Source: an uncultured Actinomycetota bacterium (GTDB taxonomy: Bacteria; Actinomycetota; Actinomycetes; JAHEKZ01). From it: 64,000 nt of DNA. Positions within the stretch are counted from its first letter, which is position 1; each line of letters opens with the position of its first letter. The notes beneath the pieces were generated by a model, which had not been told where the DNA came from, did no database searches, and saw only the letters and a program-made list of their open reading frames with translations. Positions 7,687 to 37,973 of this stretch are shown in pieces. Made by a program: the position numbers and the translations under genes. The stretch is taken from contig CAVURN010000005.1 in the NCBI GenBank assembly GCA_963743915.1, positions 384,001 through 448,000 of the forward strand, read 5' to 3'.

Positions 7687-8199
7687 CTAGGTCTCTGAGT
7701 GTTCGGCTTGAAGCTCTGCAACTCCAGCCTCTGCCCGGGTTGCGGCAGCGTCTAGGGCGCTTTGAACCGCTTCGACGATCTGCTGGTATCCCGTACACCG
7801 GCACAGGTTGCCGGAAATCGTCTCGCGAATCTCGTCGTTGGTCAGCCGGCGTGCCTCGTTGTACACCGGGAGCAAAGTCATGAGCAGTCCCGGAGTGCAG
7901 AAGCCGCACTGAAGTCCGTGGCATGCGGAAAACGCCTCTTGAAGACCGTGCAGAGTCGAGTCGGATGCGAGCGCTTCGACGGTGGTCACGCTCCGTTGAT
8001 CACCCTGAACAGCAAGCATGGTGCATGAGCGGACCGGCACGTCGTCAACCAGGACGGTGCAACTGCCACAGACCCCGTGCTCACAACCGACGTGGGTTCC
8101 CGTCAGACCCAGTTCGTGGCGCAAGAAGTCGGAGAGGAGCAATCGGGGTTCGACATCACGCACGTGGAGGTCGCCATTCACGGCGATTTCGATTCTCAC
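7687..8199 (-). CDS. kdhS: [2Fe-2S] small subunit, 6-hydroxypseudooxynicotine (ketone) dehydrogenase KdhS/KdhB-like
   Basis: GCEHGVCGSCTV, QCGFCTPG, GNLCRCTGYQQIVEA; context with kdhM and kdhL. Confidence 0.8.
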   Translation of the reverse strand: MRIEIAVNGDLHVRDVEPRLLLSDFLRHELGLTGTHVGCEHGVCGSCTVLVDDVPVRSCTMLAVQGDQRSVTTVEALASDSTLHGLQEAFSACHGLQCGFCTPGLLMTLLPVYNEARRLTNDEIRETISGNLCRCTGYQQIVEAVQSALDAAATRAEAGVAELQAEHSET

Positions 8200-9083
8200 G
8201 CCGATCTCCTCGTAAAACTGTCGTCTTCCAAATCAAATGTTTGGCGAAGGGCACGACGCAATTGATCTGTAAGGACAGCCCGTCGATACTCGCTCGTGCC
8301 ATGCACGTTGCTCTCCGGTGTAAGCACGGCGGCCACTCGGGTTGCAGCTCTCTCGACCGCAACCTCGTCGACCTGGCGATTGATCAGCTCCTCGTCCAGC
8401 CCCGTGGCCAGCGTTGGGCCTGCGCCCGCCGCAATGAGACCCGCGGCCACGGAGGTGCACCGACCCTGAGGGTCCACACGCGCACAGACTGCGGCGCCGC
8501 CGATGGCGTAGTCGCCCTTCCGTCGCGCGTACTCTGAGAAACCCCAGCGGCTCTGGTTATCGGCCGCCGGGATCTCGACACGAACGACGAGCTCTCCATG
8601 CTGAAGCGCAGTCTGAAAGTGGGTCCCAAAGAAGTCGCGACTGGTGATCCGACGCTCTCCCGCGCTGGACAGCGTCACAATGGTGCCGCCGGTGGCAAGA
8701 AGCGCTGCTGGGAACTCGGCCGCGCTGTCGCTGTGGGCGACCGCGCCGCCGAAGGTTCCAGAGTTTCGGATCTGCGGGTGGGCCACCCACGCCGCCGCCG
8801 CCGAGAGCAGAGGCGCTGCTTCGCGGACTACCGGACTCCGTTCGACCTCCTCGTGCCGGACAAGCGCGCCAATTGCAAGCGTATCTCCGGCTTGGTGCAC
8901 TTCCCGCAATTCAGGAATGCGCGAGATATCCACGAGCAGGGTAGGGCTCGAAAGCCTCAGGCTCAACAGCGGTATAAGGCTTTGTCCTCCCGCCAGAACC
9001 TTGGCGTCCTCATCGGCATCAAGGAGTTCACAGGCGTGGTCAACAGAGCCTGCGACAACGTACTCGAACGGCGGCGGCTTCAC
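8196..9083 (-). CDS. kdhM: FAD medium subunit, KdhM/KdhA-like
   Basis: KPPPFEYVVAGSV, AGGQSL, AWVAHPQIRN, RRKGDYAIGGAA; resembles Arthrobacter KdhA as recalled. Confidence 0.8.
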   Translation of the reverse strand: MKPPPFEYVVAGSVDHACELLDADEDAKVLAGGQSLIPLLSLRLSSPTLLVDISRIPELREVHQAGDTLAIGALVRHEEVERSPVVREAAPLLSAAAAWVAHPQIRNSGTFGGAVAHSDSAAEFPAALLATGGTIVTLSSAGERRITSRDFFGTHFQTALQHGELVVRVEIPAADNQSRWGFSEYARRKGDYAIGGAAVCARVDPQGRCTSVAAGLIAAGAGPTLATGLDEELINRQVDEVAVERAATRVAAVLTPESNVHGTSEYRRAVLTDQLRRALRQTFDLEDDSFTRRSA

Positions 9084-9331
9084 AGGACCACCAAACACAT
9101 GTGTCTCCGACTGCGGCTCGTGATCTCAACTGTGATATACACCATGTGATCCTTCAGTCGGTTGTCGCTGCGTCGAGTCATTCTGCTGGGATGCATGCGG
9201 GCTAGTACGAAGTCCGGCAAAGTCCACCGCTCCTTCCTCGCCTATCGACAACTGGCCGGAACGCTGGTTGTCGGAGCTGAAAGCGACCGGGTCCGCTGAG
9301 GCCGGCCGCCGACCATTCAGTTGTGAAAGCC

Positions 9332-12015: not shown

Positions 12016-12121
12016 GGCCGCAACACTGACATGTCTGGAAGGGCTGCGTTCTGCACACCAGAACAAGAATGGACCTGCGATTGGTAGCAACTCTGGTGGC
12101 GTCCCTCTAGGCGGTGGCGCG

Positions 12122-14476
12122 TCACGCAACGGTCCCAGGGTTCGCACGACGCCAGAGATACTCTGGCGTCACAGGCACCTTGGTTGTCTGAATGTCGCCG
12201 CTGAAGGCATCGTCAACCGCCCCCGCTACCGCCGCCCCGACTGCGATCAAACCAACCTCGCCTAGCCCCTTCGCCCCGAACGGGTTGTTGGGGGTCGGTG
12301 CGTCCTCGGTCATGAAGAACTCGATGTCTGGAACTTCTTGAGCGCCCGGCAGTAAATAGTCCATAAACGACGTGGAGAGCGGTTGACCGTTCTCGTCGTA
12401 CAGGAACTCCTCGTACAGAGCGCCACCAATGCCCTGAGCGGCGGCACCGATCACCTGACCGCGCGTCATCATTGGGTTGATAGCGCGACCAGCTTCGGTG
12501 CTAGTGAAGAAACGACGAAGGGTAGGCGCGCCTGTCCCGCGATCGACCTCGATCTGAACCAAGGTCACGCCGTACGGATAGTTCATGTGATCGTCGAGGT
12601 AGACCGCCTGAGCCCCAAGGCCAGGCTCGTCTCCGGCGAGTCGGGCAGACCAACCGTCCCAGCGTGCTGCGATCTCCGCCAGGCTGAGGCCTTGACCAGC
12701 GGACCCGGTGACCACGATGTGGCCGTCCTCGAGCGTCAGGTCATCGACATCGGCCTCGAGCATTTCCGCCGCCAGCCGCTTCGCCTTGGCAACGGTGTCC
12801 AAAGCCGCCTGGCGCGCAGCACCACCGGCCATCACCGTCGACCGACTGGACCAGGAGCCGACACCTTCAGGCACTAGCTCAGTATCACCGTGCACGACAT
12901 CTATGAGCTCCACGTCGACCTGAAGCTCCTCAGCCACAATCTGAGCCAATACCGTTTCGATGCCTTGCCCAACAGACGAAGCACCCGTGCGAACTCGAAT
13001 GCGGCCGGAGGCATCAACATCCACGGCCCCGGTCTCATAGAGCCCGAGACCTGCCTTGTCCATCAGGATTCCAATCCCATTGCCAACCAGACGACCCTGG
13101 GCCTGAAGCTCGGAGGCCTCCTGCTGCCATGCGGCGAAGTCGACCGACTCCAATGCCTTGTCCAGGTGGTCCACCACATCGCCGGAGTCGAATGTGTAGG
13201 GCTCAAAGCAGATGTCCAAGCCGGGCGCGTAGGGCAGGTCCGTCTGGTCGAGGAGATTGCGCCGACGGATCTCTACCCGAGAGAGCCCGAGTTTCGCCGC
13301 TGCCTGGTCGAGGAGGCGCTCCCGGGCGAACGTCACTTCAAACCTGCCGGGGGCTCGATAGGCCGACAACGGGGTCTTGTTCGACAGCACCACGTGAAGT
13401 ACGCCGTCGAACGCCGGCACCCGATAGGGGCCCGGCACCATGCCTAGGGTGATATCGCTGCAGAGTGGCTCTGCCTGGCGCAGGTAGGCCCCGTGGTTGT
13501 GCCAGATCTCATCGGTCATCCCGAGCAGTCGACCGTCGGCGTCGAACGCAGCAGACATCTCGTGGACCTGCTCGCGAGCGTGTGCCGTTGCAACCATATG
13601 TTCGAGTCGGTCCTCGGTCCATTTCACGGGCCGCCCAAGTTTCATCGCTGCCCAACCGACCATGATGTACTCGGGAAACACACCGCCCTTGACGCCGAAG
13701 TTGCCGCCAATGTCGACATGCTTCATGCGAAGGTCGGCCAGCGGCAGTTCCAAGACTTCGGCGATCAGTCGCTGGGAGTCGTGAATGTGCACCGGGCCCC
13801 ACATGAAAAGCTGCTTTCGACCTCGGTCGGGCTCTGCCACACAACCTCGGGTCTCCATCGGTACGCCGGAGTGACGGCCCACCACATAGCGGCCCTTGAC
13901 GACGTGGGCGGCGTTCGCGAACGCGGATGCCACATCCCCGTATGCCTTCTCGATGCGGACGGCCTCGTTACTGAGACCTTCGAACAGTTGCTCCGCGTCC
14001 TCGGTCATGGCCGTTTGTGGATCGAGCACAGGGGGCAGTTGGTCGTAGGTGATGTCCACGAGCCCGGCCGCATCTTCGGCCAGGTAGGGCGTGTCGGCGA
14101 TGACTGCTGCTACGGGCTGCCCTACATAGCGCACGCGATCAGAGGCGAAGACTGGATGCAGGTAGTCCTCGATCTGCGGATACACCTCGTGGTACCCGAT
14201 TCTCTCGAGGGGGATGCTGGCCGAGATGTCCTCGGCGGTGATGACCAGCCGAACCCCAGGCGCTCGACGTGCCTCCTCTGTGTCGAGCGCGGTGATCCGA
14301 GCGTGCGCCTCACTGGACCGAACTACGACCAGGAAGAGCTGTCCATACACGTCGACGTCATCAACAAATCTGGCCTCGCCGCGCAGCAAGCGCGCGTCCT
14401 CTCGCCTTCGTACTGACTGCCCCACGTACCTCTTCGCCGAAGGGCCCAGCCCACCAGAAGCTCCAGGTCTACTCAC
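12122..14476 (-). CDS. kdhL: 6-hydroxypseudooxynicotine dehydrogenase molybdopterin large subunit (KdhL/KdhC)
   Basis: XDH-family Mo subunit with KdhL-type segments GYHEVYPQIED, HNHGAYLRQAEPL, EPYTFDSGDVV, LMDKAGLGLYETG, GVGSWSSRST; divergent from pnh. Confidence 0.88.
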   Translation of the reverse strand: MSRPGASGGLGPSAKRYVGQSVRRREDARLLRGEARFVDDVDVYGQLFLVVVRSSEAHARITALDTEEARRAPGVRLVITAEDISASIPLERIGYHEVYPQIEDYLHPVFASDRVRYVGQPVAAVIADTPYLAEDAAGLVDITYDQLPPVLDPQTAMTEDAEQLFEGLSNEAVRIEKAYGDVASAFANAAHVVKGRYVVGRHSGVPMETRGCVAEPDRGRKQLFMWGPVHIHDSQRLIAEVLELPLADLRMKHVDIGGNFGVKGGVFPEYIMVGWAAMKLGRPVKWTEDRLEHMVATAHAREQVHEMSAAFDADGRLLGMTDEIWHNHGAYLRQAEPLCSDITLGMVPGPYRVPAFDGVLHVVLSNKTPLSAYRAPGRFEVTFARERLLDQAAAKLGLSRVEIRRRNLLDQTDLPYAPGLDICFEPYTFDSGDVVDHLDKALESVDFAAWQQEASELQAQGRLVGNGIGILMDKAGLGLYETGAVDVDASGRIRVRTGASSVGQGIETVLAQIVAEELQVDVELIDVVHGDTELVPEGVGSWSSRSTVMAGGAARQAALDTVAKAKRLAAEMLEADVDDLTLEDGHIVVTGSAGQGLSLAEIAARWDGWSARLAGDEPGLGAQAVYLDDHMNYPYGVTLVQIEVDRGTGAPTLRRFFTSTEAGRAINPMMTRGQVIGAAAQGIGGALYEEFLYDENGQPLSTSFMDYLLPGAQEVPDIEFFMTEDAPTPNNPFGAKGLGEVGLIAVGAAVAGAVDDAFSGDIQTTKVPVTPEYLWRRANPGTVA

Positions 14477-14497
14477 AATGATCCCTGCCTCGCCGGT

Positions 14498-14518
14498 ATT
14501 GACAGCGGCAGTGTCAAT
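14498..14518. promoter_or_regulatory. Palindromic operator candidate ATTGACA-N7-TGTCAAT in the kdhL/pnh divergent spacer
   Basis: Perfect 7-bp inverted repeat about 20 bp upstream of the kdhL start; each arm contains TTGACA. Confidence 0.55.
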
Positions 14519-14712
14519 GTGGAGGCACGCGGCACGCTGCACGTACAGCGGCAAAAACAGTGTCCAGTTACGCAGGACATGGAGTGACCCCCCAGCCGAC
14601 GGGCGCTTTGCTCAATGGGTGTCAAAGGTCTCGTCCAGATTCGCGGAAGATGTAGACCGCCATTTGATGTGCGCTGGAGAGGATACAGCGCCAGCTGAGT
14701 GATGGAGACGAG

Positions 14713-15780
14713 ATGACAACCGTGACCCAAACTATCCCGACCCCCGAAGAAGAGATGCTGAACTGGGGTCGGCTACTTATGGATGGACTGCCCTTCGCCG
14801 ACCTTATCGCTGCCCGGGACCGGGCCCCCGAAATCACGTGGTTCGACTACTGGATGGGCAGAGCAGACGACTACGAGGCGATGGGTGATACAGCGCTCGC
14901 CGCCGGTCATTCGATCAGCGCGGGGTACTGGCTCTGGCTCGGCTCGATGGCCGCCCAGTACGCGCAGTTCCTGTGGTTCGATGAGCGTCGGCCACGTGGC
15001 CAGCGGCGCAAGGCGGAGTTGTATCACCGTGCGGCACCCCTCCTGGATCCGCCCGCCATTCGGATCGATCTCCCGATCGACGAGACCCTGATCATCGGCT
15101 ATCTCCGTCTGCCGAAGCATGCCGAGGGGCCAGCCTCCTGCGCAGTCCTCTTGGGGGGGCTGGAGAGCACCAAGGAGGAGAGCTACATGTTCGAGAACAT
15201 GCTCCTCGACCGTGGCGTCGCCACCTTCACGTTTGACGGTCCAGGCCAGGGCGAAATGTTCGACGACGTGGCCGTGTCCGGCGACTACGAGAGGTACGCC
15301 TCGCGAGTCCTCGATCACCTAGTCACCCGAACCGACATTGCGAGCAACCAGATTGGTGTACTCGGCCGAAGCCTTGGCGGACACTACGCCCTTCGCGCAG
15401 CATCCATGGATGACCGATTCCGCGCCTGCGTATCGTGGGGGGGCTTTGTGCAGATGGATGACTGGAGCTTCGAGTACCCGCTGACCAAGCAGAGTTGGCA
15501 ATACGTCACCAAGTCACCCGATCTTGCGACAGCACAGGTTCGGGTCCGCGAGGCGATCGATGTTCGGCCGGTGCTTCCCAATCTGCAGATCCCGACCTAC
15601 GTTCTCCATGGCGCAAAGGACGAAACACCGATATCGGAGATCGACTTGCTGCAGCAGTATGCGCACAGAGCTTCGATCGTGCTGGACGTGGAACCAGAGG
15701 GCGACCACTGCTGCCACAACCTAGGACCAGCACCACGAGTACGCATGGCGGACTGGCTCGCCTCGGAGTTACATCACTGA
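14713..15780 (+). CDS. pnh: 2,6-dihydroxypseudooxynicotine hydrolase (alpha/beta C-C hydrolase)
   Basis: EEMLNWGRL, QYAQFLWFDERR, GGLESTKEES, GRSLGG nucleophile, GDHCCHNLG; matches the recalled Arthrobacter enzyme closely. Confidence 0.92.
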   Translation: MTTVTQTIPTPEEEMLNWGRLLMDGLPFADLIAARDRAPEITWFDYWMGRADDYEAMGDTALAAGHSISAGYWLWLGSMAAQYAQFLWFDERRPRGQRRKAELYHRAAPLLDPPAIRIDLPIDETLIIGYLRLPKHAEGPASCAVLLGGLESTKEESYMFENMLLDRGVATFTFDGPGQGEMFDDVAVSGDYERYASRVLDHLVTRTDIASNQIGVLGRSLGGHYALRAASMDDRFRACVSWGGFVQMDDWSFEYPLTKQSWQYVTKSPDLATAQVRVREAIDVRPVLPNLQIPTYVLHGAKDETPISEIDLLQQYAHRASIVLDVEPEGDHCCHNLGPAPRVRMADWLASELHH

Positions 15781-15834
15781 CGCGTTGGCATCCGACCGGC
15801 TGCGCGCAAGAGACGCAAAGAGCAGAGGAAGGTA

Positions 15835-16188
15835 ATGATGGACGAGATCTTGGCTGTCGAATCCGCGGCTGTTGAGCTTGAGACATGGCAGCCCGAGGGC
15901 GTGACGATCCTTGCAGGCGACCCAGCCGGACGCGGGTTCACGCTGTTCGAGGACTTTGAGCATGGCGCTCGTGGCACGGGTGTGTTCGAGTGCGATCCCG
16001 GGAAGACCACATACACGCTGGAGTACAACGAGATCATCTACGTGCTCGAGGGTGAGGTGACCATCGAGCTGGCAAATGGTTCCAAGGTCGACCTTCGCCC
16101 TGGGATGCAGGCATTCCTGCCCGCCGGCCACCTGTCGACTTGGACCTTCCACTCCAAGTTCCGCGAGGTGTGGGTCCTCGCGGACTGA
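15835..16188 (+). CDS. Cupin (EutQ/DUF861-like) protein
   Basis: GVFECDPG...EIIYVLEGEVTI...PGMQAFLPAG. Confidence 0.85.
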   Translation: MMDEILAVESAAVELETWQPEGVTILAGDPAGRGFTLFEDFEHGARGTGVFECDPGKTTYTLEYNEIIYVLEGEVTIELANGSKVDLRPGMQAFLPAGHLSTWTFHSKFREVWVLAD

Positions 16189-16204
16189 ATCCCGGAGGAT
16201 CAGC

Positions 16205-16262: not shown

Positions 16263-17081
16263 CTACATTCGGCGGTCCCTCAGCACGGGAAAGTCCTCAC
16301 GCACCTGGCGCGCCAGATCGAGATCGAGTCGAGCGGTGAGTATCTCCTCATCGGAGTCAGCCTGGGCGACCACCTCGCCCGTCGGCGCGACTACTTGGCT
16401 GGACCCACCCAGCTCGACACCACAGTGGGTACCGGAACTGTTGCACTGCAGGACCCACGCCTGGTTCTCTACCGCTCGGGCTCGTCCAAGAAGCCGCCAG
16501 TGCTCCATTCGCGGCTTCGGCCACGCTGCCGGTATCAGCACTACCTCTGCGCCGCGCTCACCGAGTTTGCGAAAGAGCTCCGGGAAACGTAGGTCATAGC
16601 ACGTGGCAAGGCCGACTCGGGCAGAGCCCTCTGGACAGGCGAGGTCCGTCACTGTCAACTGGCTGCCCGCCTCCAAAATCTGTGGTTCACCCACTCCGAA
16701 GCCAAACCGGTGGATCTTGCGGTATGTCGAGTGGATCTCTCCCAACGGAGACAGCAGCACTGATGTGTTCCACAGGCCACGACCCTCGGCGCCCCTATGT
16801 GCGCCCTCGTCGGCCAACTCGATGATGGAGCCGGCATGAATCCAGCAATCCAACCTCGGGGCGAGTTCGGCGAGACGACCAATGGTGTGACCGTGGATAG
16901 ACTCGGCCGTCCTCGCCCACGAAGCCGAAGCGAAACCGCCGTGTGCCCACAGCTCGGGCAGAAGTAGCAGGTCGGGTCGGCTGATGTTCTGAATGGCAGC
17001 ACAGACCCGGTCTACTCGGTCTACCAGCGGCTCCTCGTCACCGTAGCCCACCTGGTAGAGCGTGACATCGATCCCACTCAT
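16263..17081 (-). CDS. nit: Carbon-nitrogen hydrolase, probable omega-amidase (2-ketoglutaramate amidase)
   Basis: LPELW, YRKIHRFG, ATCYDLRFPE (E-K-C triad); nicotine-cluster context. Confidence 0.82.
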   Translation of the reverse strand: MSGIDVTLYQVGYGDEEPLVDRVDRVCAAIQNISRPDLLLLPELWAHGGFASASWARTAESIHGHTIGRLAELAPRLDCWIHAGSIIELADEGAHRGAEGRGLWNTSVLLSPLGEIHSTYRKIHRFGFGVGEPQILEAGSQLTVTDLACPEGSARVGLATCYDLRFPELFRKLGERGAEVVLIPAAWPKPRMEHWRLLGRARAVENQAWVLQCNSSGTHCGVELGGSSQVVAPTGEVVAQADSDEEILTARLDLDLARQVREDFPVLRDRRM

Positions 17082-20876: not shown

Positions 20877-20898
20877 ATCAGCTCCTGAGATCTTTGCG

Positions 20899-24149: not shown

Positions 24150-24242
24150 GCTGCTCTCCTAACGCTCGGTGTCGTGCGACTGCACTGCGTCAGTCTCGGA
24201 GAGAGCGCCCAGGAGCGGCTCTGCATACTCCGATAAGAACGG

Positions 24243-25515: not shown

Positions 25516-25607
25516 CACGGCAGTGTAGTCCCCGATAGAGGCCGCCAGCAGCGCAACAGGGAAGGACGTAGCCCTCGTCCGGGCTACGTCCTTCCCACAA
25601 GCGGGGG

Positions 25608-26774
25608 TCAGGAGACGCCCCAAACCTCCTTGTAGATGGACTGGTAGTCAAGGCTGGTTTCCCACTGTGTGCCCTCGGGAGGCAGGCCATTCTCGCCATC
25701 GAAGACGGCCACCCCCACACCCGAGGGCACTGTCTCCTCACCCGCAAGGAGACGGTTGACCATGTCGGCAGCAGCCCAGGTTTCGATGCCGGCGTCGTAG
25801 CCGAACCCGGCATCCTGGCCCTCGTTCTTGTGGATCAGGTCGACGTTAGCCGGGAACCCGCTGCCAGCGACCACCTCAAGTGAGTCATTGCGGCCAGATG
25901 ACATCACCGCGGCTGCTCCACCTGTCGTCATCAGGTCGTCGTAGGAGACCGAAATCCCATTGGCATCTGGGTTGCGCAGGAGTGCAGTCTCGAACTTCTG
26001 CTGCAGTGGAGGACCGAACTCCGCGGTCTTGACCTCAACGGTCTCCACCGGGCACGTCGGACACATCTCCTCCATCTTCGCCTGGAAACCGTCGCTGATG
26101 GCCTTCGTGATGATCAGTTCAGGAACGCTGAACTCGATGATATTGGCCTCCTCGCCGAGCCGTGAGAGAAGCCATACTGCTTGGGACGCGCCCAGGGCCT
26201 CCGCCCACTCCACGAAGTTGCCTTCCTGAAACTCCAGCGTACGCGCGAAGTACGACTCGGAGTTCGGATCCACGTCGCTGCAGTCGGCAGCCTCCTGAGA
26301 GACCACGGGGATCCCAGCCTGCTTGGCCTCCTCCAACGCGTTCTTCACCAGCGGGCAGTCGATCGAGAAGAGCCAGATGACATCGGCGTTGCTGGCGATA
26401 GCCCGCCGGATGCCCTCCTGGTACGCCGCTGGCTCGTACTTGCCGTCGTAGATGGACAGGTCCCAACCAAGCAGCTCAGCAACCTCCGTGGCCGCCTCGG
26501 CCTGCTTGGTGCCGGTTGGCGATTGCACTCCTGAGTTCACGATGGCCACACGCGCATCGGGTTGAGCGGCAGGCCCGCTGTCCGGGGGCAAGGCAAACGT
26601 CCCATCGCCAAACAACGCTTCGAGCTCCGTTGTCGCCTGCTCGGAGACCGCGTCGTCCGAGCCGGTCTGGGTGCCTTCGCCAGACTCGGTGCTGCACGCG
26701 GCAGCGGTGAGCACCGCGGCAAGCACCGCAGCGACGCCAAGCAGGCGTCTAGGACTTCTCATGAAGGGATGCAT
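25608..26774 (-). CDS. Sugar-type ABC substrate-binding lipoprotein
   Basis: Signal peptide with LTAAAC lipobox; Peripla_BP-like LLGWDLSIYDG, AKQAGIPVV. Confidence 0.88.
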   Translation of the reverse strand: MHPFMRSPRRLLGVAAVLAAVLTAAACSTESGEGTQTGSDDAVSEQATTELEALFGDGTFALPPDSGPAAQPDARVAIVNSGVQSPTGTKQAEAATEVAELLGWDLSIYDGKYEPAAYQEGIRRAIASNADVIWLFSIDCPLVKNALEEAKQAGIPVVSQEAADCSDVDPNSESYFARTLEFQEGNFVEWAEALGASQAVWLLSRLGEEANIIEFSVPELIITKAISDGFQAKMEEMCPTCPVETVEVKTAEFGPPLQQKFETALLRNPDANGISVSYDDLMTTGGAAAVMSSGRNDSLEVVAGSGFPANVDLIHKNEGQDAGFGYDAGIETWAAADMVNRLLAGEETVPSGVGVAVFDGENGLPPEGTQWETSLDYQSIYKEVWGVS

Positions 26775-27125: not shown

Positions 27126-29246
27126 TCAAGGCGCTGCAGTCACGGTGATTCCCTCGAGGTCAAGGCGAAGGGGCTCCCGCTTGTAGGGAAGCGCAACTGC
27201 CGGATCCGGTGAATCAAACTCGCGCGCCAACCGGTGGCCGTCGAACATCGCCTCGGCCATCGCGCGCGGAGAGGAGGCGTCGCCGACGCAGTAGACGCCA
27301 CGGATACCCGACTCAGACAAGCTTTTGCGGTCACTGACAAGCGCGTTGTACATCTCGTCCACAGGCACGCGCATCGTCACCAAGACAAGTGCCCCGGTCT
27401 CCACCCGGAATGATTCCCCATGTGCCCCGAGCCCGACGAGGTGTCTACGGTGTGCCGCAGTCAAGGTGACCTCGCGATACATGGCGACCCGGCTACGGTG
27501 GAGTGTCGTCCGAATCGCATTCCCCTCCAGCGTCAAGTCCGCCTCGGGCGCAACCTGCGCATGCGGTGTGACAAGAGCGACTTCGTACCCCTCGTCGGCA
27601 AGGAGCTGCGCAAGGCCGGCGCCCATGTAGTAGCCCTCGGTGTCGTATACCGTGACGTGGGTCCCCTCGGTAGGACGTCGGGCCTCCGCCATCAGTTGCT
27701 CAGGCGTGAATACCCAGTCGCCCCCTTCATCAATCCCTGGCAAGGACGCGTGTGTCCCGGGTGATGCTCCACTACGCAGCCAGCGTGCGCCTGTGGCCAC
27801 GACCACGTGCGAAGCGCCATAGTCAAGAACGTCGGTGGCATCCAACCTGGTCGACGGGATGTAGGCCAGGTTGGGGAGCTTGTCGATCTGGATCTGCCGA
27901 TGGTCGATGAACCGAGCCCACTCCCGCATGCCCGACAACTCAGCGACCGGTCGAAGGTGCCCGCCGAGCTGCTCTGCGGCGTCGACGAGGTGCACTCTCT
28001 CCGCCCCTCGTTTGGCCAGACCGATCGCTGCCTCCATGCCCGCCGGACCTGCTCCCACTATCAAGACACTGACCTCAGGATCAGCTAGGGGTTCGAAGCG
28101 CTCCGGGTGCCACCCGCGCCTGAACTCCTCCCCCGCGGTGGGGTTCTGAGCACAGGCGAGGTTGCCCCGGTCGAGGCTACTGATGCAGTAGTTGATCCCC
28201 GTGCATTCGCGGATGTCCTCGGTGCGACCCTCCTGGACCTTCTTCGGAAAGAAGGGGTCCGCGATGGACTGACGAGCGCTGCCGACGAGGTCTATCAGTC
28301 CGGATCGCACAGCCTGCGCCATGAGATCGGGGTTGGTCAGTCGTGACACTCCCACCACGGGCTTCGTGGCGGCCCGACGGACTCGTCCGATGAGCTCCAG
28401 GTTGTGGCCTTCAGGCCAGATCCGGGAGGGACTGATGTCGGTCTCCATGTCCAAGTGGGCGCCGAAGTTCAGGTCCCAGAGGTCGACCAGCGAGTCCCCC
28501 ATCCCGACAAGGGCCACAGTGTCCTCCACACTGTGTCCCCATGGGCCCTGGGTCTCCACCGCCAACCGTGTCGCGATGGCGCACTCGCCACCAACGGCCT
28601 CGCGCACCCGGCTGAGCGTCTCGAGCCAAAACCTCGCTCGATTCTCTAGCGTCCCGCCATACCTGTCGCTGCGCTGGTTGTGGAAGGGCGAGAGGAACTG
28701 GGCGAACAGGTAGCCATAACCCGCGAGCACTTCCACGATGTCGTAGCCGACTTCGCGAGCGCGCACTGCGGCGCCCACGAAGGCCCGCTGCACACGCTCG
28801 ATGTCGTCCAGGGTCATGATCTTCGGTGTCTCCGGCGGATACCACGGAGGGTGTCGTTCCGATGACAGGCCAGAGGCAGAGAGTGCGGGTTCACGTGAAT
28901 GCCGACGCAGCGACTGAACGCCGCCGTGGTGAAGCTCGATGCAGGCCAGCGCACCATGAGCGTGGACAGAATCCACCATCAACGTGTGACGAGAGGCGTC
29001 CTCCTCGTCCCAGAGATCGCTCGAATACCATGGCCACTCATCGCTGCTGGGGCCGACGCTGGAGAACTCTGTCGACACGGCCGCCCACCCGCCCTCCGCA
29101 CGAGCAGCCCGGTAAGCAGCCCAGGTGGCCGGACGGAAGGTTCCAAAGGCGGTGCCGTGGGGCACGTTGTAGAACCGATTGCGAAGGGTTTTGGGGCCGA
29201 CGACGACCGAATCGAAGAGGATCTTGTGATTGTCGGCTATCGGCAC
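27126..29246 (-). CDS. TMADH/histamine-dehydrogenase-family flavoprotein (OYE barrel, Fe-S, ADP domain), copy B
   Basis: LRNRFYNVPH, AEGGW, RSDRYGGTLENRARF, IRECTGINYC..CAQNPTAGEE, IVGAGPAGME. Confidence 0.9.
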   Translation of the reverse strand: MPIADNHKILFDSVVVGPKTLRNRFYNVPHGTAFGTFRPATWAAYRAARAEGGWAAVSTEFSSVGPSSDEWPWYSSDLWDEEDASRHTLMVDSVHAHGALACIELHHGGVQSLRRHSREPALSASGLSSERHPPWYPPETPKIMTLDDIERVQRAFVGAAVRAREVGYDIVEVLAGYGYLFAQFLSPFHNQRSDRYGGTLENRARFWLETLSRVREAVGGECAIATRLAVETQGPWGHSVEDTVALVGMGDSLVDLWDLNFGAHLDMETDISPSRIWPEGHNLELIGRVRRAATKPVVGVSRLTNPDLMAQAVRSGLIDLVGSARQSIADPFFPKKVQEGRTEDIRECTGINYCISSLDRGNLACAQNPTAGEEFRRGWHPERFEPLADPEVSVLIVGAGPAGMEAAIGLAKRGAERVHLVDAAEQLGGHLRPVAELSGMREWARFIDHRQIQIDKLPNLAYIPSTRLDATDVLDYGASHVVVATGARWLRSGASPGTHASLPGIDEGGDWVFTPEQLMAEARRPTEGTHVTVYDTEGYYMGAGLAQLLADEGYEVALVTPHAQVAPEADLTLEGNAIRTTLHRSRVAMYREVTLTAAHRRHLVGLGAHGESFRVETGALVLVTMRVPVDEMYNALVSDRKSLSESGIRGVYCVGDASSPRAMAEAMFDGHRLAREFDSPDPAVALPYKREPLRLDLEGITVTAAP

Positions 29247-29334: not shown

Positions 29335-31509
29335 TCACCTCGTCGGAGCCATCCTGCTTGTCTTCGATACTGGCGTGATTGGCAGTTTGCCAACCAGTTC
29401 GTCGTCGTAGTCCTCCTCGCGCCACCCAAGGATTCGGTGCTCTCGAATGAATGGCAGTGGGGTGGCGGGATCCGCCTCATCAATCTCCCTGGCGAGGCGG
29501 TGTCCCTCGAAAACCGCCTCGGCAATCACGCGCGGCTCAACGCAGTCACCGATGCGGAAGACATCAATTCCGTCCTCCCCGGGCCGCTGGTCATGGCTTG
29601 TCAACGCCTCATACAACCCGCTCCGCGAACGACGCTGCGTGACGAGGACAACGGCATCTGCTTGCCAGTCCGCTGTCTTGCCGGCGTGGTATGTGTGATG
29701 TCCGGTGACCAGACCCGGCCGGAGGGATGTCACAAGGTGGCTTGGGACTACCTCGATGCCCAGTTTCAGCAGACCGTGCATCACACGCTCACCCTCGTCG
29801 GTGAAGAACAGGTACGATCCGACTTGGTCGGCCGGGCAGACCAGCGTGACCTTCTTTCCTTCCAAGGCCAGCTTCTCGGCGATGCTGGATCCCATGAAAT
29901 AGCCGTCGCAGTCGTAGACGACGACGGATTCCCCGAGAATCGGCCGTTCCTCAACCATGAGGGATTCGGGCGTGTACACCATGGCTGCGTGTTCTTCGAC
30001 CCCGTTGATCGGCGCGTGGGTGATCGGGTTCATGCCTGTCGCATCCCATTCGGAGCCGGTCGCGACCACAACGATCTGTGCCCCGTAATCCAAGACCTCC
30101 TCGGCGGTGATGGGGTGGTCGGTCAAGACCGTGACGCCAGGAAGCTTGGCGAGCTGAGCCTCGCGGTACTCCACGACGCGCCGCCACGTACGGAGTCCGG
30201 GCAACTCGGAAACCCAGTTGACATGGCCACCGACCTCGGCGGCCCTGTCGACGAGGTGAACTTGTTCAAACCCGCGCTCGCCCAGGACCCGGGCGCACTC
30301 CATACCAGCGGGGCCGGCCCCCACGATAAGTACTGGCTCCTCAGACCTGGCGGACGGATTGAATCGCTCCGGATGCCAGCCGCGGCGATACTCCTCGCCA
30401 ACCGTCGCATTTTGGGTGCACACGATCCGGCCGCCCCCGTTGTTGAACCGGGAAACGCAGATATTGCAGCCTATGCACTCGCGGATATCCTCAGCGCGGC
30501 CTTCCAGGATCTTTGTCGGAATGAAGGGGTCTGCGATGGCGGGACGCGCCGCAGAGATGATGTCGATGACGCCATCACTCACCGCCTGCGCCATCAGTTG
30601 CGGGTCGGTGAACCGGCCAACAGCGGTGATGGGTTTCTTGGCATAGGGCCGGACCTGCTCGATGTAGTCCCGCTGCCAGAATGGCTGGAAGAATCGGGAC
30701 GAACTGCAGTCGTCCGACATGTGTCCGACCTGCATGTCCCACAGGTCAACGAGGTCATCGAGAAGCTCGACAACAGCAATTCCATCCTCATTGACCTTGA
30801 ACGCCTCTTCTGACTCATCGGTGAATGAGTCAAGACAGAAGCCAGCCACAATCGCACAGTCGTCGCCGACGGCCGCACGCACCTGCTCGACCGTTTCACG
30901 CCAGAATCTGACGCGATTCTCGATGGAACCACCGTACTCATCCGTGCGCTGGTTCCAGTAGCGCCAGAGGAATTGCAGCGGCAACGAGAACCCCGCGCGG
31001 GCGGAGATCTGAACGAGATCAAATCCGACGTTGCGTGCGCGGATGGCGGCGTCGACGTATGCCTTCTGAATCCGACGGATATCCTGCTTATCCATGGCGT
31101 AGCACGAGTGGCCGGACAATGGACTCGTCACCTGGGAAGGCCCGCCGGCTGGGAGACGGGTCCCAAATCCGCTGTGGTCCGGTCCCATGTAGACCAGCTG
31201 AACGCCTGCCAAGGCCCCGAACTCATGGACCCGGTCCACCATGAGTTGCAGATTGGCCTCGTCGCGACGATCAATCAATCGAGCCTGAACCCATGGCGCA
31301 TCATCACTCTCCGCGTCGACAGCGCAGTACTCGGTGTTGACGGCGGCCCAGCCACCTTCTGCACGCAGGCCCCGCAGATAGGCCTGGGCCCCGGGGTGGT
31401 CCACTCCGAGCCCGGAACAGTGAGGCGAAACGTAGAAACGATTGCGGAAAGTCTTCGGCCCAACCCGGATGGGCTCAAAGAGGGGCAGGTGACTCGGGTC
31501 GGTTGTCAT
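29335..31509 (-). CDS. TMADH/histamine-dehydrogenase-family flavoprotein, copy A
   Basis: FRNRFYVSPHC, AEGGWAAVNTEYC, RTDEYGGSIENR, IRECIGCNIC..CTQNATVGEEYRRGWHPE. Confidence 0.92.
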   Translation of the reverse strand: MTTDPSHLPLFEPIRVGPKTFRNRFYVSPHCSGLGVDHPGAQAYLRGLRAEGGWAAVNTEYCAVDAESDDAPWVQARLIDRRDEANLQLMVDRVHEFGALAGVQLVYMGPDHSGFGTRLPAGGPSQVTSPLSGHSCYAMDKQDIRRIQKAYVDAAIRARNVGFDLVQISARAGFSLPLQFLWRYWNQRTDEYGGSIENRVRFWRETVEQVRAAVGDDCAIVAGFCLDSFTDESEEAFKVNEDGIAVVELLDDLVDLWDMQVGHMSDDCSSSRFFQPFWQRDYIEQVRPYAKKPITAVGRFTDPQLMAQAVSDGVIDIISAARPAIADPFIPTKILEGRAEDIRECIGCNICVSRFNNGGGRIVCTQNATVGEEYRRGWHPERFNPSARSEEPVLIVGAGPAGMECARVLGERGFEQVHLVDRAAEVGGHVNWVSELPGLRTWRRVVEYREAQLAKLPGVTVLTDHPITAEEVLDYGAQIVVVATGSEWDATGMNPITHAPINGVEEHAAMVYTPESLMVEERPILGESVVVYDCDGYFMGSSIAEKLALEGKKVTLVCPADQVGSYLFFTDEGERVMHGLLKLGIEVVPSHLVTSLRPGLVTGHHTYHAGKTADWQADAVVLVTQRRSRSGLYEALTSHDQRPGEDGIDVFRIGDCVEPRVIAEAVFEGHRLAREIDEADPATPLPFIREHRILGWREEDYDDELVGKLPITPVSKTSRMAPTR

Positions 31510-31651
31510 GGCCCTCAACCTAGCCATGCCCATCAGGTGCTTCCTTTCATGAGGTGCCGAATCTGACCCTGACAATTTGCGGATCTGCACTAGCAAGAAA
31601 TCGTCCGCGGTGATCCCACCTCAGGTGAGCGGGCTCAGGGATCAGCGAGGG

Positions 31652-32110
31652 TTATCCACGTTCATCGCCCATTGCCCATTCATAGCTCATCTGGACGAGT
31701 TGCCACACGACCTCGAGTTCAGCGCGATCCCGTGGACCGTAGACGAGAAAGGAGTCCTGAACTGGATGCGGTACGCCCCACCCGCCTCGGAGAGCGGCAT
31801 TTACTGCAGACCGAGGCAATGAAAGGTGGAGGCTGCCGTCGTGATGCGGATGCAAGTGCGCAAACTCTCGGCCCTTCTGAAAGCGTGCGGCAGGAGCTCG
31901 GCCGAACCCGTCGGCCAGGTGGAGGGCGCGAGCGTGCGACACGGAGACCAGCGTGGGAGCCATGTAGGTGAAGGGCAGGGAGCGCATCCTGAGCCACAGC
32001 TCTTCCTGCAGCATCACCGGAGCGATCTGCGACCGCTGTGCGTGCGGAGAAGACCCGATGACTTGCGGTGCCGGGCCGGTACGCATGGGGAACTCGCCGG
32101 ACGCGTCCAT
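31652..32110 (-). CDS. DUF5519 / luciferase-like domain protein
   Basis: PHAQRSQ, REFAHLHPHHDGSLHLSLP, GWGVPHP, VYGPRDRAELEVV. Confidence 0.75.
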   Translation of the reverse strand: MDASGEFPMRTGPAPQVIGSSPHAQRSQIAPVMLQEELWLRMRSLPFTYMAPTLVSVSHARALHLADGFGRAPAARFQKGREFAHLHPHHDGSLHLSLPRSAVNAALRGGWGVPHPVQDSFLVYGPRDRAELEVVWQLVQMSYEWAMGDERG

Positions 32111-32117
32111 GAGCCGC

Positions 32118-32726
32118 TCACCCACGACGAAGCCTTTGGGCGATGTCGATGACCCTCTCGGCGAGATGCGTGAGGGCTTCGGTCTGCGTGGCTTCCAGCG
32201 GATGGGGATCGGAAGTGCCGGTGACATGAGACACGCCATAGGGGTTTCCATCAACGAACTTCAGCGGTGCGGTGTATCCGGGTGGAACCAAGACACCTCC
32301 AAAGTGGTACACACTGTTGTACAGCGCAAGCAGTGTTGACTCTTGACCCCCGTGGGCCGTCTGACTCGAGGTGAACCCGGCGTACGCCTTGTCCGCTAAC
32401 TCGCCGCGCACCCAAGGCTGGCCCAAGGTGTCGAGGAACTGCTTCAACGGTCCGGCCACATTGCCGAACCGGGCCGGGGTTCCCAGGAGAACGCCATGCG
32501 CCCAAACGAGGTCATGGTGCGTAGCGACCTCGACATGTGTCGTAGCCTCGGAGTGCTCAACCCAGGCCGGGTTCTTTGCGATCGCCTCGCTCGGCGCCAA
32601 CTCTGCGGCCCGGCGCAATCGAACTTCAGCACCCGACGAACGTGCAGCATCCGCCAGGACCTGTGCCATGGCGTGAAGCGTGCCGGTTGCCGAGTAGTAA
32701 ACGATGGCCATCCTCGTTGACGACAT
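32118..32726 (-). CDS. wrbA: WrbA-type NAD(P)H:quinone oxidoreductase
   Basis: YYSATG, GTPARFGNV, SQTAHGGQESTL, GNPYGVS. Confidence 0.9.
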   Translation of the reverse strand: MSSTRMAIVYYSATGTLHAMAQVLADAARSSGAEVRLRRAAELAPSEAIAKNPAWVEHSEATTHVEVATHHDLVWAHGVLLGTPARFGNVAGPLKQFLDTLGQPWVRGELADKAYAGFTSSQTAHGGQESTLLALYNSVYHFGGVLVPPGYTAPLKFVDGNPYGVSHVTGTSDPHPLEATQTEALTHLAERVIDIAQRLRRG

Positions 32727-32859
32727 CTCCCTAGCCTTCTATCCACGGGGTAAGCAGTGTCGTCAAATCGTCGATGAACACCGGCTCAGGAGCATGCTGC
32801 TGATCGGTAGAAGTTGAGGTCCCGGTCTACTACACCTGCACACTTGCACCGCTGGACTT

Positions 32860-34865: not shown

Positions 34866-34875
34866 GCATTCCACG

Positions 34876-35436: not shown

Positions 35437-35504
35437 ACCGGCGAGTCTAGGTCGGCCTCAACCGAGCAACAACGGAGCCGCCAAGGGCCCACCCTCCGTT
35501 TGCG

Positions 35505-37973
35505 TCACTCACTGGTACGAGGTCTGCTTGACTTGGGGTCGTAGAGGGGCCGAAGGGATGCCAGGGCAGAAACTCTCCTTCCGCCGACCTCGATGGCATA
35601 GTCGCCATCGACAAACCACGACGAGTCAACGACTTCCGGAGCGCGGACCCAACCCAGGGCCACGGAGCCGCCTAAAGTGTGGCCGTACTGTGCGGACGTG
35701 ACCCTGCCCACGAGTCGATCATCTCGGAATATTGGCTCATCGTGGAACAGCATCGACTCAGGATCCTCGAGCAGGAACTGGACCAGGCGACGATGGATTG
35801 CAGCGTCGCGGGCACGACATAGCGCATCGCGACCGATGAAGCCTCCCGGCTTGTCCCATCGCACTGCGAATGACAACCCTGCCTCAAGGGGATTGTCACC
35901 GGAGGAAATGTCATGTCCCCAACTACGGTAGGCCTTCTCGAGCCGCAGTGAGTTCATCGCGTGATACCCGACCGGAGTTGGGGCTAGGTCAGAGTCCGCC
36001 TCAGTCAGTACGCTCCACACGTGACGGGCGATGTCCGCCGGGATCAGTAACTCCCATCCCAACTCTCCGACATAGGTAATCCGAGTAGCGCGAACATAAC
36101 CGAGCCCGAAATCAATTTCACGCGAGGCGCCGAACGGGAAAGCATCGTTGGAGAAGTCCGCGTCGGACAGCGACGCGAGGAGTCGTCGGGAGTCCGGACC
36201 CATGACAGCTAGCATCGCCAGTCCCGCGCCAACGTCTGCCACGGTGCACCGATCGTCCGCGGTGATGTTCCTCTTGAGATGCGCTAGGTCGCGACGGACT
36301 GTCGCAGGACCCGAGAGAACCAAGAACTCATCCTCAGCTACCCGGGTGACCGTTACATCCGCCTCTATGCCGCCATCTGCGTTGAGCCACTGCGTGTACG
36401 TGATCTGCCCTGGTTCGGTGTCCACGTCGTTGACTGAGAGTCGCTGAAGCACTTTGGTAGCGTCTCGACCCTGGACCAACAGCTTGCCGAATGATGAGGT
36501 GTCAATGAGTCCAACATGGTCCCGAATGGCCTTATGTTCCGCGGCAGACTCTTCAAACCAGTTAGGCCTTCCGAAGGAGTATTCATAGCGCCCCTCAATT
36601 CCATCTCGGGCGTACCAGTTGGCCCGCTCCCAACCGCCCAACTCACCAAACACGGCTCCTGCCGAGGCCGTCTGGTCGTACAGGACGCTTGTTCGCAGGG
36701 GTCGTGCGCTTTGTCTCTGCTGAAACGGCCAGTGAACTTCGTACGCAAGGTCGAGGGTCTCAACGACGCGTGCTTCGAGAAATCGACGATTCGTCTCATG
36801 GCGTTGGACTCGGGCCGGATCGGCCTCGGGAAGGTCGACCGGGCATCTCCCATCCACAAGCCAATCAGCCAGTACCGAGCCGACACCCGGCCCAGAGAGG
36901 AAGCCCACAGAATTGAAGCCGGCTGCCACGAAGTAGTTTCGAAGTGATGGCGCTTCACCTAGGTGAAACATGCCATCTGGCGTGAAGCTCTCCGGACCGC
37001 AGAAGTGCAGGCGGATACCGGCGTCCTCCAACACGGGCATGCGTCGAACCATTCTTTCGTAGAAATGGCCAAGATGCTCCCAGTCCTCCGGCAGTTGGAT
37101 GAATCCCCCACCTTCAGGGATGCCCCTCGATGCCCACGCGTAACTCCCGGGCTCGAAGAAGCCGATCATCAGTGCCCCGGCTTCATCCTTGACATAGGAG
37201 TACTCGTCACCACTCTTGACGGTAGGTAGATTCCGGGGCAATCCATCGATGGCCTCGGTGACGACGTAGTAGTGTGACAGCGCTTGCAGCGGGACGGCGA
37301 CACCGGACTGGCTGCCGAACTCCCTACCCCACATTCCTGTGGCATTTACCACGAACTCTGCTTCGATGTCTCCGGCAGTGGTTCGAACTCCTTTTGCAGC
37401 CCCGTCAACGGACAACACGTCAGTGACTCGGACCCCCTCGAAGGTTTTCGCTCCCCGCTGGCCAGCTCCTCGAGCCAGTGACATGACCGTGTCTGTAGCA
37501 CTGCCGCGTCCGTCACGCGGGTAATGGAGGCTGCCGAGAATCCCCTCTGGTTCAAGAAGGGGATGCATGGCCAGGGTCTCGTCCACGCTGAGCAGCTCAA
37601 CCTCGATGCCGTTGCTGCGAACTGCGCTTGCCTGGTGACGAAGCTCGTCGAGGCGCTCCGGTGACGTGGCAAGGTTGATCGTGCCTGTCTCGACGAAGCC
37701 AGTCGAGAATCCGGTGTCCTGCTCGAGCGACCGAAACACCTCAAGGCTGCGCTGCACGATCTCGCGTGTTCCCCAGGTTTCGCGCGCCTGTGTCACCAAA
37801 CCTGCGGCGTGCCAGGTCGTCCCCGACGTCAGACTATTCTGCTCGAGGAGCAGAACATCGCTCCACCCCCGACGGGCAAGGTGGTAGGCAGTGCTCGCAC
37901 CAACGATCCCGCCGCCGACGATCACTACCTGAGCCCTCTTCGGAACAGCTTGATCTGGCGAGTCTTCAGACAT
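35505..37973 (-). CDS. mabO: GcvT-family flavoprotein, probable 4-methylaminobutyrate oxidase (demethylating), MabO-like
   Basis: GGGIVG, SGTTWHAAG (His for covalent FAD), ESFTPD, GWERANW, LRLEKAY; substrate assigned from nicotine-cluster context. Confidence 0.65.
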   Translation of the reverse strand: MSEDSPDQAVPKRAQVVIVGGGIVGASTAYHLARRGWSDVLLLEQNSLTSGTTWHAAGLVTQARETWGTREIVQRSLEVFRSLEQDTGFSTGFVETGTINLATSPERLDELRHQASAVRSNGIEVELLSVDETLAMHPLLEPEGILGSLHYPRDGRGSATDTVMSLARGAGQRGAKTFEGVRVTDVLSVDGAAKGVRTTAGDIEAEFVVNATGMWGREFGSQSGVAVPLQALSHYYVVTEAIDGLPRNLPTVKSGDEYSYVKDEAGALMIGFFEPGSYAWASRGIPEGGGFIQLPEDWEHLGHFYERMVRRMPVLEDAGIRLHFCGPESFTPDGMFHLGEAPSLRNYFVAAGFNSVGFLSGPGVGSVLADWLVDGRCPVDLPEADPARVQRHETNRRFLEARVVETLDLAYEVHWPFQQRQSARPLRTSVLYDQTASAGAVFGELGGWERANWYARDGIEGRYEYSFGRPNWFEESAAEHKAIRDHVGLIDTSSFGKLLVQGRDATKVLQRLSVNDVDTEPGQITYTQWLNADGGIEADVTVTRVAEDEFLVLSGPATVRRDLAHLKRNITADDRCTVADVGAGLAMLAVMGPDSRRLLASLSDADFSNDAFPFGASREIDFGLGYVRATRITYVGELGWELLIPADIARHVWSVLTEADSDLAPTPVGYHAMNSLRLEKAYRSWGHDISSGDNPLEAGLSFAVRWDKPGGFIGRDALCRARDAAIHRRLVQFLLEDPESMLFHDEPIFRDDRLVGRVTSAQYGHTLGGSVALGWVRAPEVVDSSWFVDGDYAIEVGGRRVSALASLRPLYDPKSSRPRTSE

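Follow-up and report, generated by a model that had tools for sequence, protein, structure and literature searches.

Nicotine catabolism by the pyridine pathway is represented here by plasmid pAO1 of Paenarthrobacter nicotinovorans (NZ_CP089294.1), on which hlno, the gene for 6-hydroxy-L-nicotine oxidase (HLNO), comes after ndhL. To our knowledge, HLNO is the only known route in this pathway from 6-hydroxy-L-nicotine to the ring-opened ketone. A second type of cluster, that of Nocardioides, is said to have been first described for Nocardioides sp. JS614 (by Ganas and colleagues, in 2008). The subject of this analysis is a cluster of the second type, here called the island, in a 64,000-nucleotide stretch of DNA (the window) from an uncultured Actinomycetota bacterium. 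It lacks hlno and carries in tandem two genes, tmdA and tmdB, for paralogs of trimethylamine dehydrogenase (TMADH). With moderate confidence, we lean towards the view that a transferred Nocardioides-type island has lost hlno, a derived state, and that in it the TMADH-family genes would serve the amine branch of the pathway and the ring-opening step is without an assigned enzyme.

HpbA, the N-methylproline demethylase, is a TMADH-like protein. It is called 'flavin-dependent' in passages of PMC3950512, and parts of PMC7688666 describe Pno, the 6-hydroxypseudooxynicotine dehydrogenase of the hybrid (VPP) pathway in Agrobacterium tumefaciens S33, as a TMADH-family enzyme linked to electron transfer flavoprotein (ETF). 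Nocardioides is named only in passing in passages of PMC3891541 and PMC13651117. The term '6-hydroxynicotine dehydrogenase' was not found in the literature searched, which also yielded nothing on TMADH-type genes in actinobacterial nic clusters; the supplementary nic-gene tables of PMC10494377 lie outside that search.

Gene content, type and origin of the island

The window corresponds to C5:384001-448000 of assembly G000 (2.92 Mb in 5 contigs, 69-70% GC, 90% complete), and contig C5, which carries the island, is contiguous over 582 kb. The island was examined at 7687-37973 of the window, which holds 25 genes (23 on the minus strand). When 30 proteins translated from pAO1 were compared with the assembly by tblastn, 20 had matches in the window, two PucR-type regulators included. 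Pfam domains are matched by 23 of the 24 open reading frames (ORFs) first tested, the odd one being antisense to the cupin gene. Both searches bear out the gene list of a first-pass annotation (ndhMSL, kdhL, kdhMS, pnh, dhpH, cyclase, nit, mabO-like, coxDEG and mocA), and its remark that nit directly overlaps the ndhL stop is correct, the two sharing an ATGA at 17078-17081. The features of the island and its borders are as follows (percentages are identities to pAO1 proteins unless stated).

2820..4260, plus: DAO-family FAD amine oxidoreductase (PuuB / aminophosphonate-oxidoreductase-like), reading frame broken in the window
4285..5412, plus: xdhC-like Moco-insertion protein, 46.7% to XdhC, with about 5020-5290 in another frame
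5469..6319, plus: second copy of the coxD/MoxR ATPase, 59% to CoxD, over three frames
6502..7584, plus: NmrA/EasG-like NAD(P)-binding protein; orthologs (59-63% to this protein) directly beside tmdA in relatives
7687..8199, minus: kdhS, 2Fe-2S subunit (Pfam; 61.6%)
8196..9098, minus: kdhM, FAD subunit (Pfam; 43.0%)
9332-10411, minus: ABC permease (Pfam; orthologs in 8-9 related loci)
10408-12147, minus: double ABC ATPase (Pfam; orthologs in 8-9 related loci)
12122..14554, minus: kdhL, 61.6% to KdhL
14713..15780, plus: dhponh/pnh, 2,6-dihydroxypseudooxynicotine hydrolase, 53.3%
15835..16188, plus: cupin, 49.1% to the pAO1 ORF that comes after dhponh
16263..17081, minus: nit, CN-hydrolase, 44.8%
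17078-19507, minus: ndhL, 61.7%
19504-20022, minus: ndhS, 58.7%
20019-20957, minus: ndhM, 46.0%
20899..21630, minus: coxG (SRPBCC), 47.0%
21714..22898, minus: dhpH, 2,6-dihydroxypyridine 3-monooxygenase, 53.1%
22924 to about 23850, minus: cyclase, 75.8%
23865-24152, minus: Dabb, 62.5%
24295..25623, minus: PucR-type regulator (Pfam and a pAO1 match)
25608..26774, minus: sbp, periplasmic solute-binding protein (Peripla_BP_4; Pfam)
27126..29243, minus: tmdB, TMADH-family paralog without the FMN-linking Cys30 and without one of four Fe-S cysteines
29335..31506, minus: tmdA, TMADH-family paralog keeping Cys30 and the four Fe-S cysteines, the trimethylamine pocket not kept
31652..32254, minus: small protein with a PF17648 'Luciferase' domain (Pfam)
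32118..32726, minus: WrbA-type NAD(P)H:quinone oxidoreductase (Pfam)
32860-33981, minus: coxE, 45.9%
33981-34961, minus: coxD, 55.3%
34876-35436, minus: mocA/MobA-like, 38.9% to a MobA-like ORF
35505..37973, minus: mabO-like DAO+GcvT fusion, 40.2% to MABO
38794..38868, plus: tRNA-Arg(CCT), at the right border of the low-GC island
38985..41711, plus: two diverged tandem IS481-like copies, about 1.43 kb apart, 74-85% identical to each other over repeated segments

The product of the window ndhL is 61.7% identical to NdhL of pAO1 and 36% to KdhL, and that of the window kdhL 61.6% to KdhL and 35% to NdhL. The matches of NdhLMS and KdhL to pAO1 are reciprocal, with the next-best plasmid matches at 48% or lower, and KdhLMS, DHPONH and DHPH each give a single, near-full-length alignment. 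In a quick tree, the base of which is unresolved, the window NdhL falls within the nicotine NdhL clade and the window KdhL with KdhL of pAO1, both with 100% SH-aLRT. Judged by orthology, window 7687-37973 is a true nicotine pyridine-pathway cluster, the predicted Ndh and Kdh of which group with nicotine enzymes. Shared with pAO1, at 40-76%, are ndhLMS, kdhLMS, dhponh, dhpH, cyclase, Dabb, nit, coxDEG, xdhC, cupin, mabO and PucR-type regulators; the sole tblastn match in the genome to XdhC of pAO1 (one query) is the gene at 4285..5412. Compared with pAO1, the island lacks hlno, hdno, purU, sad and nepAB and has no mao, and it adds the two TMADH-family genes, the DAO-family, NmrA/EasG-like, WrbA-type and PF17648 genes and the ABC uptake system. 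The DAO-family, NmrA/EasG-like and WrbA-type genes have no counterpart among the pAO1 proteins compared.

A one-genome-per-species scan for NdhL, with flanks read to +/-10 kb of ndhL, gave 12 loci in which NdhL is 76-82% identical to that of the window (11 in Nocardioides and 1 in Flexivirga endophytica); NdhL of pAO1 is at 62%. The island and loci L022-L029 have the order sbp-pucR-dabb-cyclase-dhpH-coxG-ndhMSL-nit ... cupin/dhponh-kdhL-abcATPase-permease in common. Clusters of Nocardioides (N. alpinus, N. furvisabuli, N. allogilvus, N. tweenelious and others) and F. endophytica resemble the island in their proteins (76-89%), in core gene order and in the accessory genes tmdA, tmdB, dao, nmrA, wrbA and the PF17648 gene. 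On this similarity of sequence and order, the island is a Nocardioides-type nic cluster. It differs from the others in that hlno, present in all 11 full-cluster genomes, is missing, in that tmdA and tmdB form a tandem on the ndh strand, and in that the host genus is otherwise without a cluster. Nocardioides zhouii, which has a full cluster at L023, also has a second locus (L020) with a lone NdhL paralog, 78% identical to that of the window, and no other nic gene within +/-10 kb.

The first-pass annotation had stated that hlno normally follows ndhL. This holds for pAO1 but not for the closest clusters, in which, as in the island, nit comes directly after ndhL (11 of the 11 related loci that hold a cluster) and hlno is found elsewhere, at one of three positions: with the PF17648 gene on one side and sbp on the other (L022-L024, L026, L028, L029), after coxD-coxE (G001, G003), or between the cupin gene and xdhC (G002). 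Because nit follows ndhL in relatives that do bear hlno, the ndhL/nit overlap is normal for this cluster type and is not a deletion scar.

No ortholog-level match to the island was found among 60 relatives of the host (13 same-genus, 6 other same-family and 41 same-class genomes, 4 of the last flagged unpublished and used for no other result), the best match reaching 42%. The GC content is 0.623 in the island, 0.689-0.700 in the host contigs and 0.63-0.66 in the related clusters. Since none of the 19 same-genus and same-family genomes carries the cluster, its GC content is low, and a tRNA-Arg gene and IS481-like copies lie at its border, the island is horizontally acquired and foreign to its host. 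Its proteins and their Nocardioides orthologs are equally near to pAO1 (kdhL 61.6%, orthologs 61-62%; dhponh 53.3%, orthologs 52-55%; dhpH 53.1%, orthologs 53-56%; cyclase 75.8%, orthologs 73-77%), which argues against long-standing decay. Passages of PMC10494377 place IS481 elements at one end of Arthrobacter nic clusters and list Nocardioides and Rhodococcus strains with nic genes.

Outside the island, a molybdopterin oxidoreductase gene at 52764-55603 (minus strand) is apparently split into two overlapping ORFs, with the Fe4S4 domain in 54335-55603 and the Molydop_binding domain in 52764-54572; a frame error or a pseudogene is possible.

Search for a 6-hydroxynicotine oxidase

The first-pass annotation had found no MAO- or BBE-family gene between 2.8 and 38 kb. 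Searches with pAO1 and Nocardioides-type queries and with Pfam models agree, and extend the result: by sequence comparison, it is confirmed that neither hlno nor hdno has an ortholog in the window or in the 2.92-Mb, 90%-complete assembly. The only match to HLNO of pAO1 (tblastn) is an N-terminal FAD motif of 106 residues, on contig C3. Four Nocardioides-type HLNO queries found no remnant in the window at E<=1, and their only full-length match is a MAO-like gene on contig C1 (26-28%). PF01593 (Amino_oxidase) has 19 matches in the assembly, and the ORFs behind 7 of them are CrtI, CrtD and CrtO-like carotenoid desaturases, protoporphyrinogen oxidase and the MAO-like gene on C1. An Amino_oxidase match at C5:380677-382503, 1.5 kb upstream of the window and beside a GcvT-like gene, proved to be CrtO / phytoene-desaturase-like and not an amine oxidase. 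A broken MAO-family gene at C2:552.9-554.1k was rejected as hlno because it has no PDB relative. PF01565 (FAD_binding_4) has 7 matches, and the 5 named ORFs are GlcD, two EncM/BagG-like proteins, MurB and a DprE1-like protein. HDNO of pAO1 aligns at 44%, over the FAD domain only. The genome's best HDNO match, at C3:88011-89337, is confined to that domain and scores 211 bits against EncM/BagG and 162 bits against 6-HDNO; this EncM/BagG-like gene of the VAO family is split over two frames.

The first pass had also listed purU, folD, sad, mao, nboR and nepAB as absent. For purU there is only a 30.6% match over 134 residues, for sad nothing above 39%, and for nepAB one SMR homolog on contig C2; folD and mao are absent from the island and have homologs on C1 (60% and 44%). 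The mabO-like gene, the island's putative member of the gamma-N-methylaminobutyrate set, is 40% identical to MABO and is linked to it by purU-mabO-folD synteny, as its 74% orthologs sit between purU and folD in G001 and G003; neither purU nor sad is in the island. The pAO1 ORF labelled 'nicotine blue oxidoreductase' has as its window homolog a MobA-like NTP transferase. NboR itself is an FMN enzyme. Of two 204-aa ORFs on NZ_CP089294.1 (102382-102996 and 83753-84367), one bears that RefSeq label and the other is an NADPH-dependent FMN reductase, and the label may be on the wrong ORF.

Among the relatives, whole genomes were searched for hlno and the tmd genes in nine cases (G001-G005 and G396-G399). 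All nine have hlno (56-60% to HLNO of pAO1), on a different contig from ndh in G001 and G003, and hlno was also seen in the flanks of two further loci, L023 and, in part, L027. As hlno is present in all nine relatives and on pAO1, and no subgroup of the NdhL tree is without it, its absence here is probably a derived loss. The census of hlno and tmd comprises 13 genomes; it is limited to that number because only 2 of 331 Nocardioidaceae genomes sampled to enlarge it have an ndhL ortholog.

At the left edge of the island (2820-6319), the DAO-family gene, the xdhC-like gene and the second coxD are each broken over two or three frames. Orthologs of the DAO gene are conserved in related clusters, either beside tmdA (G002, G187) or in the order wrbA-dao-coxD-coxE-hlno (G001, G003), and the left edge resembles the hlno-ending segment of G001 and G003, cut short after coxD. 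Words sampled from window 2700-8700 are present at a uniform 0.60-0.62 in 14 runs, which belong to 12 studies and come from freshwater, sediment, soil and sludge. Contigs from three unrelated runs (X1, X7 and X9) have common differences from the window, comprising 37 single-base indels and one 81-to-74-base replacement; all 12 indels among those listed are bases in excess in the window, and the differences listed for the DAO gene sum to 15 bases. A 13-kb contig of X9 has the same order dao-xdhC-coxD-nmrA-kdhSM. Either assembly has introduced local indel errors into window 2700-8700, or a single, very similar strain has an unusually wide distribution. The frame breaks were considered as proof of island decay; since the extra bases are missing from the contigs of three runs, the breaks may be assembly errors or strain-specific, and they are not counted as such.

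Two TMADH-family paralogs

The TMADH-like pair had been put forward in the first pass as the best candidates for pyrrolidine oxidation, with mutual exclusion of hlno and the pair as a possible pattern across nic clusters. Within +/-10 kb of ndhL such a pattern does appear, 7 loci having hlno without tmd and 3 having tmdA without hlno, and the whole-genome searches overturn it: hlno is present in the genomes of all three tmdA loci, and tmdA or tmdB lies just outside the flanks of the hlno loci. Orthologs of tmdA (76-81%) occur in seven of the nine hlno-positive genomes, orthologs of tmdB (68-76%) in eight, and at least one of the two in all nine; in G004 and G005, tmdB is two or three genes away from hlno. 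As a replacement for HLNO, the pair fails this comparative test. Orthologs of tmdA (76-77%) are found away from ndh as well, beside aminotransferase, aldehyde dehydrogenase and permease genes. The co-occurrence with hlno indicates that the TMADH genes are ancestral to the Nocardioides-type cluster, and did not come in as a substitute when hlno was lost. There is no Oxidored_FMN gene on pAO1, and no relative of tmdA above 47.9% among 72,556 plasmids.

Both proteins match Pfam Oxidored_FMN and Pyr_redox_2 and are homologous over their full length to TMADH of Methylophilus methylotrophus (PDB 1DJN/2TMD): residues 2-690 of tmdA align to residues 2-710 (E 2e-192), and tmdB aligns full-length (E 1e-169). 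The substrate pocket of TMADH is presumably made up of an aromatic bowl (Tyr60, Trp264 and Trp355) and a His172-Tyr169-Asp267 triad. In TMADH numbering, tmdA keeps Cys30, Tyr60, Asp267 and the four Fe-S cysteines, and is changed in the pocket by Y169S, H172A, R222G, deletion of W264, and W355F. The changes in tmdB are C30G, Y60F, Y169L, H172Y, W264M, W355L and C348I, so that only Asp267 is kept of the pocket residues. As the TMADH pocket is not kept, neither protein is likely to be a trimethylamine enzyme. The states of Cys30 and the Fe-S positions are constant in 7 of 7 tmdA and 5 of 5 tmdB orthologs, the second Fe-S cysteine of tmdB being Ile throughout, and the pocket-loop residues are constant among orthologs save for changes specific to G000, W264M included. 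In the tmdB lineage (27126-29243; G001, G003, G004 and G005), FMN may be bound non-covalently and the iron-sulfur cluster lost or changed.

Against TMADH, tmdA scores 644 bits and tmdB 569; against 6L6J, they score 469 and 411, and for both paralogs this entry ranks below TMADH and both histamine dehydrogenases. We take 6L6J to be Pno of P. geniculata N1, from the length of the entry and from parts of PMC7688666. Like Pno, tmdA and tmdB are encoded as TMADH-family (FMN/4Fe-4S/ADP) enzymes in a nicotine cluster, the use of ETF being Pno's; unlike Pno, they are nearer to TMADH than to 6L6J, and in the island Kdh and DHPONH would take 6-hydroxypseudooxynicotine down the pyridine route.

In G396-G398 the gene order is nmrA, tmdA, about 3 kb, a sad-like dehydrogenase gene (49-50% to Sad of pAO1), a DAO paralog and tmdB. 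A sad-like gene is upstream of tmdA in G002 and G187, with a DAO-family gene directly downstream. In G001 and G003, tmdB adjoins xdhC-folD-mabO-purU. On a metagenome contig (L057), a 77% tmdA ortholog is accompanied by imine-reductase-like, NmrA/SnoaL, HbpS-like, LysR, class-III aminotransferase and aldehyde dehydrogenase genes, and ndh does not occur within 10 kb; at L056 a tmdA ortholog is found with two APC permeases. Neighbours of these kinds (sad-like, aminotransferase, mabO-purU) point to an aliphatic amine branch rather than to ring opening. The NmrA-like gene that accompanies tmdA (window 6502-7584; L057 7083-9849) resembles the ergot EasG iminium-reductase family at 169 bits, below the cut-off, and L057 has an imine-reductase-like gene in addition. 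A pairing of imine reductases with an amine dehydrogenase might suggest cyclic amines as substrates.

Explanations for the missing step

In the derived-loss reading, the route would begin with hydroxylation of the pyridine ring by Ndh; Kdh, DHPONH and DHPH would lead from 6-hydroxypseudooxynicotine to trihydroxypyridine, and the gamma-N-methylaminobutyrate set free would go to the mabO-like enzyme. This copy of the island would have lost hlno, a derived state. As ancestral members of the cluster, tmdA and tmdB would, from their neighbourhood, most likely be dehydrogenases of the aliphatic or side-chain amine branch, with gamma-N-methylaminobutyrate or a related amine as the presumed substrate and gamma-aminobutyrate (GABA) or succinate semialdehyde as the product; the substrate of the DAO-family enzyme is likewise presumed. 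An etfBA pair is present on contig C1, and ETF would be the likely acceptor, for tmdA at least, tmdB being without one Fe-S cysteine.

Several observations weigh against this reading. The 25 genes at 7687-37973 are intact without exception, and 23 share one strand, which fits a working pathway better than a broken one. The tmdA-tmdB tandem lies on the ndh strand, flanked by the PF17648 gene and sbp, a place taken by hlno in six related loci; the PF17648 gene is between tmdB and hlno, or adjoins hlno, in five (L024, L026, L028, L029 and G004). A second genome without hlno, G187 (one 3.30-Mb contig, Nocardioidaceae), keeps tmdA directly beside coxG-ndhMSL. The tmdA of G000 differs at 25 of the 469 columns that are invariant in six other orthologs, and 5 of these changes fall within the 25 invariant columns of two pocket-aligned loops (hypergeometric P 0.007, for loops picked post hoc). 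They turn AAREGF into SARAGF and HLED-DV into HMSD-DC, in the loops that align with His172 and Trp264/Asp267 of TMADH; tmdB has no excess of pocket-loop changes (P 0.32). No substrate assay of tmdA, tmdB or the DAO-family gene was found in the literature. The assembly is 90% complete and has many single-base insertions relative to contigs of three other runs, so that an unassembled hlno is possible.

The alternative that survives best, although we regard it as unlikely, is that a TMADH-family enzyme, most probably tmdA, oxidises the pyrrolidine C-N bond of 6-hydroxynicotine without oxygen, making HLNO dispensable in a working variant of the pathway. Both genomes without hlno (G000 and G187) keep tmdA, and no ndhL genome lacks both hlno and tmdA. 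The rest of the island is intact and the pair occupies the hlno slot, while tmdA retains its cofactor residues in an altered pocket with additional changes specific to G000; Pno is a precedent, in passages of PMC7688666, for a TMADH-family enzyme that acts on a nicotine intermediate in the hybrid pathway. However, tmdA or tmdB accompanies hlno in all nine hlno-positive relatives, identical tmdA pocket motifs occur in orthologs far from any ndh gene, and the conserved neighbours of tmdA are aminotransferase and succinate-semialdehyde-type dehydrogenase genes. G187 is also a doubtful witness. Its module (G187:C1:2945761-2959450) consists of sad-like, DAO-family and tmdA genes, then coxG-ndhM-ndhS-ndhL-cupin, then pucR and an APC permease, and its best HLNO match is 39% over residues 2-105 only; since kdh, dhponh and dhpH are absent and ndhS is split over two frames, the module may be a remnant. 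A related and slightly more speculative proposal is that tmdA is an oxygen-independent, ETF-linked 6-hydroxynicotine dehydrogenase of remodelled pocket that runs parallel to HLNO in most Nocardioides-type clusters, serving for example the other enantiomer or nor-alkaloids, and that here alone opens the pyrrolidine ring. Were this improbable proposal true, it would describe a pyridine pathway without any flavin amine oxidase.

It is less likely again that hlno is present in the organism and missing from the assembly through a gap or collapse. The incompleteness of the five contigs, the many single-base differences between the window and contigs of three other runs, and the placement of hlno on a separate contig from ndh in G001 and G003 would allow for it. 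Yet the usual flanking partners of hlno (coxE, the PF17648 gene, sbp, cupin and xdhC) are all on one 582-kb contig that lacks it, and the 13-kb contig from another run confirms the order dao-xdhC-coxD-nmrA-kdhSM. At 2.92 Mb, the assembly falls inside the size range of the 13 same-genus genomes (2.0-3.0 Mb), and two relatives in three contigs each (one same-genus, one same-family) score only 97% and 90% completeness. We infer that the loss is real rather than an assembly gap.

A doubtful further alternative is that no oxidase is needed, either because the substrates are already imines or ketones (pseudooxynicotine, 6-hydroxypseudooxynicotine released by neighbours, or myosmine-type imines) or because the pathway stops at 6-hydroxynicotine. 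The genes for all steps on either side of the gap are present and intact, many environmental metagenomes contain the stretch, and the island includes an ABC uptake system with a solute-binding protein, although hlno-positive clusters have the same uptake genes. Very unlikely is a role for the host MAO-family gene at C1:339048-340553, which is the only full-length gene of amine-oxidase type in that family in the genome (44% to MAO of pAO1, best PDB match 7rt0, 26-28% to HLNO over its full length) but is part of the genus core (orthologs in 12 of 13 same-genus genomes, all of them without a nic cluster) and is unlinked to the island.

An intact cluster without HLNO would be either a dead-end copy in transit between hosts or a sign of a hidden second enzyme for the ring-opening step. 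Beyond this single island, Nocardioides-type nic clusters have in common an uncharacterised set of genes, which encode the two TMADH-family paralogs, an oxidoreductase of the DAO family, an NmrA/EasG-like protein and a reductase of WrbA type, and on which the literature searched has nothing. This set offers targets for study of the poorly known amine branch of nicotine catabolism, and candidate oxygen-independent amine dehydrogenases for biocatalysis.

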